Made by a program: the position numbers and the translations under genes. Shown here piece after piece: positions 1-29,258 of a stretch of DNA of 33,214 nucleotides. Source of the stretch: a virus (lineage: Duplodnaviria; Heunggongvirae; Uroviricota; Caudoviricetes); the IMG/VR virus record IMGVR_UViG_2537561930_000012. One strand, 5' to 3'. Under the pieces are notes generated by a model. It did no database searches. It had not been told where the DNA came from and worked only from the letters and a program-made list of their open reading frames with translations. The first letter of the stretch is position 1. Each line of letters opens with the position of its first letter.

Positions 1-1047
1 GTGCGGGTATTACTTCGACCTGTTCTGGTACCGGAACTCGGGCTGGTGATCGTTAAGCCGGGCCGTGAATCCATGCCGGTATTCCACAATACCCGGGTAC
101 TGGTGGAGCCGGAACCGAAAAGCATGCGTAATCTGTCGTCCGGGGTCGTTCCTGCCGTTCGCCAGCCGCTGGCGGAGGATAAATCATTACTGCCATTTTT
201 CAGCGACGAACGAGTGATTCGTGCTGCTGGTGGCGCTGGCGCATTGTCTGACTGGTTACTGCGCCATGTTAAATCCTGCCAGTGGCCACACGGCGATTAT
301 CACCACAGTGAAACCGTCATTCACCGTTATGGTACCGGCGCAATGGTGTTGTGCTGGCACTGCGACAACCAGCTGCGCGACCAGACCTCCGAATCACTCG
401 GGCAACTTGCTCACCAAAACCTGTCTGCATGGATGATTGACGTCATACTCCATGCAATGATTGGCTCGCAGGAACGGGAATTATCGCTGGCTGAATTATC
501 CTGGTGGGCGGTCCGCAATCAGGTGGCGGACGCGCTACCGGAAGCGGTATTACGTCGTTCGCTGGGGTTGCGTGCGGAAAAAATCCGCTCAATGTACCGT
601 GAAAGCGACATCGTACCGGGAGAGCAGACCGCCACCAGCATACTGAAGCAGCGCACAAAAAATCTTGCGCCGCTGCCTCACGCCCACCAGCAAAACCCGC
701 CACAGGAAGAGACGGTGGTCAGCATTGCCGTTGATCCTGAGTCTCCGGAATCTTTCATGAAACGACCTAAACGTCGCCGCTGGGTTAACGAGAAATACAC
801 ACGCTGGGTGAAGACACAGCCGTGTGCGTGTTGTGGTAAGCCAGCCGACGATCCCCATCACCTGATTGGTCATGGTCAGGGCGGAATGGGGACAAAATCT
901 CACGATATTTTCACGCTACCGCTGTGTCGGGAGCATCACAACGAGCTTCATGCGGATCCTCTGGCGTTCGAAGAAAAGCATGGTTCTCAGGTTGATTTAA
1001 TTTTTCGTTTTCTTGATCACGCCTTTGCAACTGGCGTGCTTGGGTAA
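1..1047 (+). CDS. DUF968-family prophage protein (YdfU-like) with C-terminal HNH/zinc-finger-like motif; starts with GTG at window position 1, may be complete or 5'-truncated
   Basis: 348-aa ORF; C-terminus has CACCGKPADDPHHLIGHG...CREHHNELH, a Cys/His HNH-like motif; sits where nin-region genes lie upstream of rusA and Q. Confidence 0.7.
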   Translation: MRVLLRPVLVPELGLVIVKPGRESMPVFHNTRVLVEPEPKSMRNLSSGVVPAVRQPLAEDKSLLPFFSDERVIRAAGGAGALSDWLLRHVKSCQWPHGDYHHSETVIHRYGTGAMVLCWHCDNQLRDQTSESLGQLAHQNLSAWMIDVILHAMIGSQERELSLAELSWWAVRNQVADALPEAVLRRSLGLRAEKIRSMYRESDIVPGEQTATSILKQRTKNLAPLPHAHQQNPPQEETVVSIAVDPESPESFMKRPKRRRWVNEKYTRWVKTQPCACCGKPADDPHHLIGHGQGGMGTKSHDIFTLPLCREHHNELHADPLAFEEKHGSQVDLIFRFLDHAFATGVLG

Positions 1048-1059
1048 AGAAGGTGACTG

Positions 1060-1434
1060 ATGCTCATAGATTTGGTTTTACCTTACCCGCCGACGGTGAA
1101 CACTTACTGGCGACGCCGTGGCAGCACATATTTTATCTCGGAGGAGGGAAAGCGTTATCGCCGGGCTGTGGCGCTTATTGTTCGCCAGCAGCGGCTGAAA
1201 TTAAGCCTGTCCGGAAGGCTGGCGATAAAGGTGATTGCAGAGCCACCGGATAAGCGTCGTCGCGACCTGGACAATATCCTGAAAGCACCGCTGGATGCGC
1301 TGACGCATGCGGGAGTGTTAATGGACGATGAGCAGTTTGATGAAATCAATATCGTTCGTGGTCAGCCAGTATCTGGTGGACGTATGGGGGTGAAGATTTA
1401 CCCCATAATGCATGAAGAGCAGGTCAAAAAATGA
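1060..1434 (+). CDS. rusA: Holliday junction resolvase RusA (crossover junction endodeoxyribonuclease)
   Basis: 124-aa ORF with RusA hallmarks (PPTVNTYWRRRG..., DKRRRDLDNILKAPLDALTHAGV...DDEQ); stop overlaps Q start (ATGA). Confidence 0.85.
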   Translation: MLIDLVLPYPPTVNTYWRRRGSTYFISEEGKRYRRAVALIVRQQRLKLSLSGRLAIKVIAEPPDKRRRDLDNILKAPLDALTHAGVLMDDEQFDEINIVRGQPVSGGRMGVKIYPIMHEEQVKK

Positions 1435-2252
1435 AACTGGAAGATTTACCGAAATACTACTCCCCAAAATCCCCTGGCCTGACCGATGCATCGGCCTCAA
1501 CGTCAAAAGATGCGCTGAGTATCACTGATGTGATGGCCGCGCAGGGCATGACACAGAATCGGGCTGAGATGGGGTTTTCTGCGTTCCTGGGGAAAATGGG
1601 CATCAGTATGAATGACAGGGCGCGGGCAACAGAATTACTGGCAGATTATGCACTCAGTCGGTGCGATCGTGTGGCGGCGTTGAGAAAACTTCCGGCAGAA
1701 ATAAAACCGTTAGTGATGCGCATTATGGCTTCGTACGCTTTTGAGGATTATGCCCGCAGCGCAGCGAGTAAAAAGCAGTGCCCTTGTTGCTATGGGGAAA
1801 AATTTATTGAAAGCGTAGTTTTTACAAACAAGGTCCAGTATCCGGATGGTAAGCCGCCGGTATGGGCAAAGTGTACGAAAGGTGTGTATCCGTCTTACTG
1901 GGAAGAATGGAAAAAAGTCAGGGAGGTGGTAAAAGTTGCCTGTCCGGAGTGTGGCGGAAAGGGTGAGGTTTCCACCGCCTGTAAGGATTGCCGTGGGCGT
2001 GGTGTCGCCATTCATCGTGAAGAGTCGGTAAAACGTGGTATGCCTGTTATCAGAGACTGCCAGCGTTGTGGTGGTCGTGGCTATGAAAGACTACCATCAA
2101 CGGAGGCATTTAATGCTATATGCGAGGTGACAAACCAGATAACACGCGCGTCATGGGAAAAAACAGTTAAGAAATTCTATGATGCGCTGGTGACCCGGTT
2201 TGATATTGAAGAAGCATGGGCTGAGCGGCAGTTAAAAAAGGTAACTAGGTAA
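1431..2252 (+). CDS. Late-gene antitermination protein Q (phage 21/82-type)
   Basis: 273-aa ORF with several CxxC zinc-binding motifs (CPCC, CPEC, CKDC, CQRC); immediately upstream of a promoter/terminator pair and the lysis cassette. Confidence 0.7.
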   Translation: MKLEDLPKYYSPKSPGLTDASASTSKDALSITDVMAAQGMTQNRAEMGFSAFLGKMGISMNDRARATELLADYALSRCDRVAALRKLPAEIKPLVMRIMASYAFEDYARSAASKKQCPCCYGEKFIESVVFTNKVQYPDGKPPVWAKCTKGVYPSYWEEWKKVREVVKVACPECGGKGEVSTACKDCRGRGVAIHREESVKRGMPVIRDCQRCGGRGYERLPSTEAFNAICEVTNQITRASWEKTVKKFYDALVTRFDIEEAWAERQLKKVTR

Positions 2253-2257
2253 CAAGG

Positions 2258-2285
2258 TTGATTTTTCCGGAATCTGTGGTAAATT
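2258..2285 (+). promoter_or_regulatory. Candidate late promoter pR' (sigma70; -35 TTGATT, 16-bp spacer, extended -10 TGgTAAATT)
   Basis: TTGATT at 2258-2263 and TAAATT at 2280-2285 preceded by TG; located just after the Q stop as in lambdoid phages. Confidence 0.45.
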
Positions 2286-2332
2286 CGTCATAACGATGGG
2301 CGTTTTATGCCTGACGTTAGAAGAGTTTCTAC

Positions 2333-2358
2333 AACCCGCCGCCGAGCGGGTTTTTTAT
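2333..2358 (+). terminator. Intrinsic terminator (tR'-like) downstream of pR'
   Basis: GC stem cccgc/gcggg (2335-2339 / 2346-2350), extendable to 7 bp, followed by TTTTTTATT. Confidence 0.5.
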
Positions 2359-2395
2359 TGCGGAATTAATTATGGACCGTTATTATTCTGCTCCC

Positions 2396-2471
2396 GGCCC
2401 TTTAGCTCAGTGGTGAGAGCGAGCGACTCATAATCGACAGGTCGCTGGGTCAAATCCAGCAAGGGCCACCA
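2396..2471 (+). tRNA. tRNA-Ile(CAU)-like (ileX/ileZ-type), with non-canonical features
   Basis: 76 nt; 7-bp acceptor stem GGCCCTT/AAGGGCC plus ACCA; anticodon loop CTCATAA; two anticodon-stem mismatches and a T-loop GTCAAAT (G at position 54). Confidence 0.6.
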
Positions 2472-2472
2472 A

Positions 2473-2549
2473 CCGTCACCAGTTCATCAGGAAAGAGCGT
2501 CAACCCTTTAAGTTGAGTGTGCGAGGTTCGAGTCCCCGGTGGCGGTCCA
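2473..2549 (+). tRNA. Divergent tRNA-like gene, anticodon loop CCUUUAA (UUU, Lys-type) with unusual C33; possibly a pseudo-tRNA
   Basis: 77 nt; acceptor CCGTCAC/GTGGCGG (one G-U) plus T-CCA; D-stem GTTC/GAGC; perfect 5-bp anticodon stem TCAAC/GTTGA; T-loop TTCGAGT. Confidence 0.35.
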
Positions 2550-2551
2550 GT

Positions 2552-2627
<76 letters not shown>

Positions 2628-2630
2628 TAT

Positions 2631-2705
<75 letters not shown>

Positions 2706-2912
2706 GTTAGAGTCTTTCAGTCTGCGATGATGGGAAATCCCGGAGTGACTGAAAGACGTTTAAGTTATGAATGATCGCTTTTTTTTGCAAAATTGCTGTG
2801 CAGAAATACTAACCTTCGGGCAGGCGATCATTCATAAGCACTCTGCTTTTATTCCGATTAACTGTGGGTGGTTTGTTGGATAGAGTGCTTTCCTTACTGT
2901 ATATATTGTTTC

Positions 2913-2938
2913 GCCCGCTTTTGCGGGCTTTTCTTTTC
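2913..2938 (+). terminator. Intrinsic terminator-like hairpin upstream of the holin gene
   Basis: gcccgc-tttt-gcgggc hairpin followed by TTTTCTTTTC. Confidence 0.45.
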
Positions 2939-2997
2939 AAATCCCTTTCATTTCTCAGTGTAAAACTACGCCATCCGTTATTTGCGGAGGTGAGGCT

Positions 2998-3213
2998 ATG
3001 AAATCCATGGACAAAATTTCAACGGGCATTGCCTATGGCACCTCCGCAGGCAGTGCTGGCTACTGGTTTTTACAGTGGCTTGATCAGGTCAGTCCGTCAC
3101 AGTGGGCTGCGATTGGTGTACTGGGGAGTCTGGTTCTGGGCTTCCTGACTTATCTGACAAATCTGTACTTCAAAATCAGAGAAGACAAGCGTAAGGCTGC
3201 ACGGGGAGAGTAA
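2998..3213 (+). CDS. Class II holin, phage 21 S21-type pinholin, with dual-start motif (Met1/Met4)
   Basis: 71-aa [56 protein letters not shown]...; two TM segments; strong SD GGAGGTGAGG upstream. Confidence 0.85.
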
Positions 3214-3217
3214 TTCA

Positions 3218-3568
3218 ATGACTCAAAACTATGAACTGATTGTGAAAGGGATCCGCAATTTTGAGAATAAAGTTACGGTAACTTTAGCGTTACGGGACAA
3301 AAAACGCTTTGACGGTGAAATTTTTGACCTGGACATCTCGCTGGACCGTGTTGAAGGTGCCGCGCTGGAGTTTTATGAGGCAGCAGCCAGAATGAGCATC
3401 AGACAGGTCTTCCTGGATGTTGCTGCCGGGTTATGTGAAGGGGATGAGCAGTCGCCGGAAAAGCGCCCCGTAATTTTAGAGGCGCAGAATGTATGGATAA
3501 CCTACAAAGGAAAGCTACCGGGAAGAATTACTGGTTCTCTGAAGACTCCTCCGGAATCACAACCTTAA
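3218..3568 (+). CDS. DUF1327-family protein (YdfR-like) between holin and endolysin
   Basis: 116-aa ORF in the same position as ydfR in E. coli cryptic lambdoid prophages. Confidence 0.65.
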   Translation: MTQNYELIVKGIRNFENKVTVTLALRDKKRFDGEIFDLDISLDRVEGAALEFYEAAARMSIRQVFLDVAAGLCEGDEQSPEKRPVILEAQNVWITYKGKLPGRITGSLKTPPESQP

Positions 3569-28677: not shown

Positions 28678-29258
28678 TGGCATTCAGAATGAGTGAACAA
28701 GCACGGACCATAAAAATTTATAATCTGCTGGCCGGAACTAATGAATTTATTGGTGAAGGTGATGCATATATTCCGCCTCATACAGGTCTGCCAGCAAACA
28801 GTACCGACATTGCACCGCCAGATATTCCAGCTGGCTTCGTGGCTGTTTTCAACAGTGATGAGTTATCGTGGCATCTCGTTGAAGATCATCGGGGTAAAAC
28901 GGTTTATGACGTGGCTTCCGGCGACGCGTTATTTATTTCTGAACTCGGCTCATTACCGGAAAATGTCACCTGGTTATCCCCGGAAGGGGAGTTTCAGAAG
29001 TGGAACGGCACAGCCTGGGTGAAAGATGCAGAAGCAGAAAAACTATTCCGGATCCGGGAGGCGGAAGAAACAAAAAACAGCCTGATGCAGGCAGCGAATG
29101 AGCATATTGCGCCACTTCAGGATGCTGTAGATCTGGAAATCGCAATGGAGGAAGAAAACTCGTTGCTGGAAGCCTGGAAAAAGTATCGGGTGTTGCTGAA
29201 CCGTGTTAATACAACAACTGCACCGGATATTGAATGGCCAGTAGCACCTATAGGGTAA
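28677..29258 (+). CDS. tfa: Tail fibre assembly protein Tfa
   Basis: 193-aa ORF overlapping stf stop (TAATG); conserved C-terminus ...[31 protein letters not shown]. Confidence 0.85.

Follow-up and report, generated by a model that had tools for sequence, protein, structure and literature searches.

A conserved folded RNA module behind a lambdoid prophage tRNA array, probably the trailer and terminator of a nested tRNA operon

The intergenic region between the tRNA-Gly gene and the holin gene (2706-2940) was analysed in IMGVR_UViG_2537561930_000012, a 33,214-nt stretch of Caudoviricetes DNA that we call the window. It belongs to a lambdoid prophage, whose late-regulatory and lysis region occupies this part of the window. 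Our results suggested that 2706-2940 is probably the 3' trailer and the terminator of an independent tRNA operon embedded in the prophage late leader. Judged from its sequence and from its homologues, the module, with three hairpins (P1, P2 and P3) in front of a terminator hairpin, looks like an undescribed small-RNA family, a conserved folded RNA of about 230 bases.

Fold and covariation of the module

The plus strand of 2706-2940 (235 nt) was folded as RNA and compared with 200 dinucleotide shuffles. It forms four consecutive hairpins at -83.1 kcal/mol, while the shuffles reached -56.3 ± 4.1 kcal/mol (z = -6.6) and none of the 200 was as good. The initial annotation, made from the sequence alone, had described the region as highly structured and had named the folding energy of shuffled sequence as a check; both points held, and a real terminator is present. 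The complementary strand of the same region folds more weakly in absolute terms (-65.0 kcal/mol). By our own arithmetic, about 1e-4 perfect inverted repeats of 14-mers within 100 nt are expected by chance in a sequence of 235 nt.

P1 begins 6 nt past the tRNA-Gly gene (2631-2705), and its outer stem is the 11-bp perfect inverted repeat 2712-2722 / 2747-2757, which had been located exactly. The inner stem of P1 pairs UGGG with CCCG (2731-2734 / 2739-2742) and is closed by the apical loop AAAU. Between the two stems lies a purine-rich and nearly invariant internal loop (UGCG-AU-GA-UGGG ... CCCG-GA-GU). The tandem G-A / G-A and the A-or-U alternation at two positions of P1 suggest non-canonical purine pairs rather than Watson-Crick pairs, and we take the loop to resemble, presumably, loop-E or GA-type motifs. 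Hammerhead and K-turn readings of the loop were discarded, for the core positions misfit by eye and no Rfam match was found.

The outer stem of P2 comprises 14 bp (2765-2778 / 2824-2837). The initial annotation had given this second perfect repeat as 12 bp; its left arm, 2767-2778, was correct, but the right arm was one base off, the true partner being 2824-2835. The run of eight T (2779-2786) does follow the left arm directly. It is the 5' strand of the P2 inner helix and has no hairpin before it, and we rejected it as a terminator tail. The inner helix UUUUUGCA / UGCAGAAA (2782-2789 / 2799-2806) carries an invariant 9-nt apical loop, AAAUUGCUG (2790-2798), and a small CC-UUCG-GG hairpin lies inside P2 at 2813-2820. 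A promoter within P2 (TTGCAA, 2785-2790) was also considered and rejected, as no acceptable -10 was seen by eye at 16-18 nt, and none in phage HK639.

A third perfect repeat had been overlooked in the initial annotation (9 bp, 2836-2844 / 2882-2890) and was refined to P3 (2838-2888), in which GCACUCUG pairs with UAGAGUGC to form the outer stem (2838-2845 / 2881-2888). The inner helix (2853-2863 / 2870-2880) includes the conserved GGGUGGUUUGUUGG and ends in the apical loop GUGGGU (2864-2869). The linker that follows varies among homologues in both sequence and length. The last hairpin, GCCCGC-UUUU-GCGGGC at 2913-2928, is followed by the U-tail UUUUCUUUU; at the DNA level the tail reads TTTTCTTTT and extends to 2937, which leaves 60 nt to the holin ATG (2998), in line with the distance given in the initial annotation.

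The fold was then examined in an alignment of 12 full-length representatives, which are about 60-97% identical to the window. The RNAalifold consensus recovered the same four hairpins with 66 pairs, and 11 of the pairs were changed on both sides. Standard pairs occupied 96.2% of the alignment cells, compared with 40-48% when the 3' partners were slid by 1-3 columns. The covariation score was 0.231, against 0.06-0.08 for the slid partners, and it was reached by none of 500 column shuffles. Compensatory changes were found in every helix: two in the P1 outer stem, four in the P2 outer stem (of 15 pairs), three in the P3 outer stem (of eight) and two in the terminator stem (of six). The P2 inner helix is paired in all cases, with changes from U-A to U.G among the homologues. 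In a larger set of 28 distinct variants of P1, 96.4% of the outer-stem cells were paired, 4 of the 11 pairs were changed on both sides, and the internal loop was invariant. The absence of the inverted repeats from homologous phages had been proposed as a ground for refutation; instead, every helix is kept through compensatory changes.

The same pairs are standard in 96.2% of cells on the plus strand and in 83.9% on the minus strand, with 107 G.U cells against 11 A.C cells. This excess of G.U over A.C on the plus strand indicates that the fold belongs to the plus-strand RNA. Comparison of the homologues showed no open reading frame (ORF) conserved on either strand of the module. Together with the strand asymmetry, this points to an RNA structure rather than to a DNA palindrome or a gene.

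The strand asymmetry also bears on a DNA-level element, that is, a mobile-element remnant, an integrase att site by the tRNA 3' end, or palindromic binding sites for a protein. Such a reading could draw on the loci that keep only the T-arm and the acceptor 3' strand of the tRNA beside the element, as att sites do, and on an HNH endonuclease gene that adjoins the element in one locus. Symmetry at the DNA level would not give the observed bias in pairing, and the stems covary while the loops are conserved. No terminal repeats and no target duplications were found, and the copies sit about once per prophage in the late region (see below). The repeats proved to be hairpins internal to the module, and the suggestion of a mobile-element remnant was not sustained; we consider a DNA-level element very improbable.

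A small protein is less plausible still, and we give it almost no weight. The window does hold a 38-amino acid plus-strand ORF from 2768 and a 43-amino acid minus-strand ORF (2940-2809), and the latter is annotated as a hypothetical protein in ON470583.1. The plus-strand ORF is broken in a 93%-identical locus (L028) and absent from all HK639-like sequences, the minus-strand ORFs differ in frame, length and sequence, and the indels of the alignment are not multiples of three. The antisense ORF in ON470583.1 is probably a spurious call.

Place of the module in the probable tRNA operon

The module lies directly 3' of the last tRNA of an array of four genes, on the same strand, and it ends at an intrinsic terminator (2913-2937) which shows covariation and at which homology stops. 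This terminator stands between pR' and the lysis genes. The features of the region are collected in Table 1.

Table 1. Positions of the module and of the surrounding features in the window
Feature	Position	Strand	Basis
DUF968/NinG-like ORF	1-1047		name from annotation of near-identical records
RusA	1060-1434		name from annotation of near-identical records
Q-type antiterminator ORF	1431-2252		name from annotation of near-identical records
tR'-like intrinsic terminator	2333-2359 (hairpin 2333-2352 and T-run)	+	terminator scan
pT, tRNA-operon promoter (putative)	2358-2386	+	comparative alignment
tRNA array, four genes	2396-2705	+	ARAGORN
tRNA Met/Ile-type CAU	2396-2471	+	ARAGORN
degenerate tRNA-like gene	2473-2549	+	ARAGORN tRNA-Lys(UUU); unmatched by Rfam tRNA model
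tRNA Thr-UGU	2552-2627	+	ARAGORN
tRNA Gly-UCC, CCA encoded	2631-2705	+	ARAGORN
A/U-rich single-stranded spacer GUUAGA, between CCA and P1	2706-2711	+	
P1 hairpin	2712-2757	+	repeat search, folding, alignment
P2 long hairpin	2765-2837	+	repeat search, folding, alignment
P3 hairpin	2838-2888	+	repeat search, folding, alignment
U/A-rich single-stranded linker	2889-2912	+	homologue alignments
intrinsic terminator, right-hand module boundary	2913-2937	+	terminator scan, alignment
holin-proximal leader, outside module	2938-2997	+	
class II (S21-type) holin, 71 amino acids, dual start MKSM	2998-3213	+	ORF list; holin in homologous records

A promoter of sigma-70 type, pT, was found in front of the array (-35 TTGCGG at 2358-2363, 17-nt spacer, -10 TATTAT at 2381-2386, GC-rich discriminator). 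Its -35 matches the consensus at only three of six positions and a simple consensus scan missed it, but comparative alignment revealed it: nine divergent loci share the layout TTGCRN, 17 nt, TAT(T/C)AT and GC-rich discriminator before the first tRNA, which starts 9-10 nt past the -10. The layout is identical, and the sequence near-identical, to the element annotated in phage 933W as 'pT; putative tRNA promoter'. In the Shiga toxin (Stx) 2a phage of enterohaemorrhagic Escherichia coli Sakai, differential RNA sequencing has mapped a primary transcription start site that serves the tRNAs lying between tR' and stx2AB (PMC7547250). By homology, the array would thus be an operon with its own promoter. 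The tR'-like terminator downstream of the Q gene forms the upstream boundary of this nested unit, and it occupies the position of annotated terminators in 933W and HK639.

The typical array in related loci consists of Met/Ile-CAU, a variable tRNA-like gene, Thr-UGU and Gly-UCC. Of the four tRNAs in the window, all but the gene at 2473-2549 are confirmed by the Rfam tRNA model. At its position the related loci have Arg(UCU), Arg(CCG), Phe(AAA), 'Stop'(UUA) or an undetermined tRNA; the gene represents either a pseudo-tRNA in decay or a tRNA whose anticodon changes rapidly. In most representative loci the element starts 0-7 nt past the last tRNA, which is usually Gly-UCC and sometimes Met-CAU. 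An A/U-rich spacer of 3-7 nt separates the CCA from P1 in nearly all of the 35 unique P1 variants. In the window this spacer may be an RNase E-type endonucleolytic cleavage site which separates tRNA-Gly from the trailer.

These data are consistent with the following mechanism. In the lysogen, pT would transcribe the tRNAs and the trailer and stop at 2937, and this stop would prevent constitutive tRNA transcription from entering the genes for holin and endolysin, which are lethal. In the induced prophage, Q-modified polymerase coming from pR' would read through the terminator at 2913-2937, as it does with tR'. The cut of tRNA 3' maturation within the spacer would release an RNA of about 230 nt, protected by P1 at its 5' end and by the terminator hairpin at its 3' end, as a small RNA (sRNA) of the 3' external transcribed spacer (3'ETS) type. 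With hairpins at both ends, such an RNA is likely to be stable.

The invariant loops of P1 (internal) and P2 (apical, AAAUUGCUG) and the conserved G/U-rich arm of P3 are all carried on covarying stems. Their conservation suggests sequence-specific contacts with protein or RNA. A further and tentative proposal, which we hold to be possible but doubtful, is that the trailer is a regulatory or decoy RNA of a new class, carried by phages and riding on the constitutive tRNA operon of the prophage. P1 would then be a dedicated and so far undescribed RNA motif by which a host or phage factor is brought to the boundary at the tRNA 3' end. A role in trans would fall to P2 and P3, whose invariant loops might, for instance, titrate a host RNA-binding protein or nuclease or pair with host mRNAs.

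The linkage to tRNA could also be explained by a tRNA 3'-end maturation device with no function in trans, in which P1, with or without P2, serves as a nuclease signal or as a small self-cleaving ribozyme. P1 does lie 3-7 nt past the CCA of several tRNAs and combines an invariant internal loop with a covarying stem, and in a Salmonella copy with a decayed tRNA (a single case) P1 has decayed as well while P2 and P3 are intact. To the extent that the module is linked to a tRNA 3' end, the idea of tRNA processing sites in the initial annotation was in the right area. But no Rfam ribozyme or other family matches 2706-2912 at E ≤ 10, and the weak matches overlap only the terminator. Besides, E. coli matures CCA-encoding tRNAs without such devices, the homologous tRNA unit of 933W has none, and the conservation of P2 and P3 by covariation would be left unexplained. 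We regard a pure maturation device as unlikely.

Several observations weigh against the trailer reading itself. A tRNA 3' fragment or a decayed tRNA lies upstream of the element in HK639, L003, L005 and the Salmonella locus L169, so the element cannot serve a functional tRNA in these loci. The covariation falls mostly between two main clades, one window-like and one HK639-like, and the cell counts therefore overstate the number of independent events; further separate changes occur in L012/L005 and in L130. The U-tail of the terminator is interrupted, which makes its efficiency uncertain. Sequences complementary to the two most conserved loops were no more frequent in the window than by chance, none of them being significant, and the existence, the ends and the stability of the RNA are predicted features. 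Among 17 representative loci scanned, four gave no tRNA call at all.

Some loci retain only the T-arm and the acceptor 3' strand of the tRNA beside the element. In L005 (E. coli NCTC 13148, 1529-1992), an HNH endonuclease gene lies between tRNA-Asn and the tRNA 3' fragment that precedes P1, and this fragment, consisting of the T-arm and the acceptor strand, has a compensated T-stem. The arrangement may be a scar that recombination or homing has left at the tRNA.

Distribution and genomic surroundings

The region was found in 536 of 5,426 complete E. coli genomes (about 10%), and 526 of the copies are nearly full length. All of them are chromosomal, with a median of one place per genome and a maximum of three, and wherever the context was checked it proved to be a prophage late region. 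The window holds one copy. Four sequenced phages carry the region at about 98% identity and HK639 at about 77%, and it is also present in a Salmonella Abortusequi prophage. Scans of viral contigs with the two conserved loop motifs added about 130 copies with 35 distinct P1 variants. When one genome per species was scanned with the exact P1-loop pattern, only E. coli and Shigella flexneri were hit, and no distant relatives were added.

The module is not always complete. In a short form (L115) the terminator follows P1-P2 directly, and L005 and L012 retain only P1-P2. P1, the most widespread part, is found behind the CCA of several different tRNAs in enterobacterial temperate phages. In some loci it is succeeded by hairpins of quite another kind, by an STnc100-like RNA or by ORFs. 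This wider distribution suggests that P1 is the part tied to the tRNA 3' end.

At the right-hand side, homology between loci with different surroundings breaks right after the terminator T-run. The depositors of HK639 annotated the hairpin corresponding to 2913-2928 as 'terminator'. Many HK639-like copies (L027, L109, L141, L146, L147, L163) have a second small terminator hairpin (AAGGCUGCCAnnnGGUGGCC and a U-run) directly after the first, which makes tandem terminators before the downstream genes in those copies.

The genes beyond the terminator bear on another explanation, a cis-acting leader which sets the timing of lysis or the expression of the holin, as had been suggested in the initial annotation. 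Its hairpins would act after Q antitermination, on how the S mRNA is translated or on how stable it is. The holin start is only 60 nt downstream of the module, both are on one transcript once Q acts, and the module terminator necessarily influences the amount of non-Q transcription that arrives at S. In HK639, however, about 480 nt separate the module from unrelated lysis genes, with STnc100 and two more terminators in between. In E. coli MB06232 (L004), STnc100 (RF02076) and additional terminators likewise stand between the module and unrelated lysis genes, and in FDAARGOS_1267 (L003) STnc100 lies upstream of the tRNA instead. The Salmonella module precedes a lambda-family holin and a GH19 lysin, and other loci have other holin types or other sequence at this place. 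Moreover, the S-proximal leader (about 2961-2997) is common to about 1,350 further E. coli genomes which lack the module, for example beside essD of DLP12. In a fold of 2889-3060, no centroid pairing was seen between the module and the S ribosome-binding site. A role as holin leader is quite unlikely on this evidence, and a trailer closed by its own terminator is the reading that we retain.

STnc100 was located next to the element in L002 (2779-2984), L004 (2254-2460), L005 (2210-2402), L003 (2057-2259) and L169 (about 2320-2415). It is downstream of the element in HK639-like loci and upstream of it in L003 and Salmonella, and none is present in the window. It appears that the late leaders are arrays in which terminator-ended RNA modules have been shuffled.

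In the window, the ORF at the Q position encodes 273 amino acids and contains CxxCxGxG-type (DnaJ-like zinc-finger) repeats, whereas relatives with the same trailer encode quite different and shorter Q proteins. Thus the trailer is not tied to one Q type. The stretch 2253-2359, from the Q stop codon to the tR'-like terminator, gave sub-threshold matches to Trp_leader (25.5 bits) and isrK, and the equivalent stretch of HK639 nearly reached the isrJ gathering score (34.6 versus 37). This stretch is probably a short pR'-tR' transcript of the StxS or lambda 6S type. After the holin gene come a YdfR/DUF1327-like ORF and then a lysozyme, both named from near-identical records.

Comparison with known RNAs and implications

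Rfam was searched with 2000-3500 at E ≤ 10 and with the whole window at the gathering score. Within the region only the tRNAs were matched; no Rfam 15 family matched 2706-2912 at E ≤ 10, and the matches that overlapped the terminator were at chance level. Since STnc100 was detected beside the element in relatives, the search was capable of finding this family. Elsewhere in the window, a strong match to IS009 (RF02111) was obtained at 29020-29218 on the plus strand (209 bits, E = 4e-51). The IS009 family has been reported to flank PasB in prophage structural regions (Pas sRNA preprint).

Identity with STnc100, AgvB, AsxR or IsrJ/IsrK was rejected because no covariance model matched the module. 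PasA, PasC and PasD were rejected as well: the published partial sequences of PasA and PasD are absent, and PasA/PasC are convergent to the late operon, while the element is co-directional with it and linked to tRNA. An nhmmer search found no copy of the element in prophages PP2 and PP4 of enteropathogenic E. coli (EPEC), and no described RNA at this place was found in the searchable literature.

The closest parallel in mode of origin is 3'ETS-leuZ, the trailer of the glyW-cysT-leuZ tRNA operon, which reportedly acts as an sRNA sponge (Lalaouna et al. 2015). An RNA listed as '3'ESTleuZ' also appears in EPEC data. Like 3'ETS-leuZ, the module comes immediately after the last tRNA, shares its strand and ends at the operon terminator, and its release would likewise come from normal tRNA 3' processing. 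Unlike it, the module is about 230 nt rather than about 50 nt long, has three long covarying hairpins, is borne by a phage and shows no sequence similarity.

A comparison with Stx phages had been proposed as a check. The pT-ileZ-argN-argO unit of 933W/Sp5 has a homologous promoter, a homologous first tRNA and a closing terminator, and it is also placed between tR' and downstream late genes. In contrast to the module, the 933W terminator comes 14 nt past the last tRNA and there is no P1-P2-P3 trailer. As a terminator follows the last tRNA in 933W too, a tRNA unit that ends in a terminator before the next genes appears to be the general plan.

Two other kinds of structured RNA are found near phage tRNAs. 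The HDV-like (hepatitis delta virus-like) 'theta' ribozymes reportedly lie downstream of tRNAs in gut phages and free the tRNA by self-cleavage (Kienbeck et al. 2024). The module shares this place immediately 3' of phage tRNA genes, but a spacer and an encoded CCA precede P1, and no Rfam ribozyme matched. The consensus fold is a series of unbranched hairpins in which no double pseudoknot was identified, pseudoknots not having been searched for. Phage T4 encodes the stable structured RNAs 'species 1 and 2' (rnaC, rnaD) in its tRNA cluster; they are co-transcribed with a phage tRNA array, as is proposed for the module, and T4 is a different type of phage with no demonstrated relation in sequence or structure.

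With respect to neighbourhood, the interval from Q to the lysis genes is a known hot-spot of terminator-ended sRNA modules (bioRxiv 10.64898/2026.05.13.724894, PMC8550237, PMC4104026, PMC7547250). The element shares this interval of lambdoid prophages with STnc100 (RF02076), PasD/EcOnc13, PasA/PasC, AgvB, AsxR and StxS, and STnc100 directly adjoins it in HK639, L003, L004, L005 and Salmonella. By analogy, the module would work most like a 3'ETS-type trailer RNA in its mode of origin and like the prophage late-leader sRNAs in its neighbourhood.

In conclusion, the existence of such a family fits what is known of this hot-spot. The element would add a well-supported RNA family, absent from the catalogues, to the Q-to-lysis set (StxS, AgvB, AsxR, PasA-D, STnc100), which is known to rewire host regulation, and its carriers make up about one in ten complete E. 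coli genomes and include Shigella and Salmonella. P1 is the most original part, and with its conserved loop, its covarying stem and its fixed place after the CCA it is a candidate RNA motif. The trailer of its own tRNA operon may offer a prophage a route to a continuous supply of structured RNA in lysogens, and insulation of the lethal lysis cassette from constitutive tRNA transcription would provide a rationale for the terminator. If the trailer does act as a decoy or regulatory RNA, about 10% of E. coli strains carry an unrecognised regulator.

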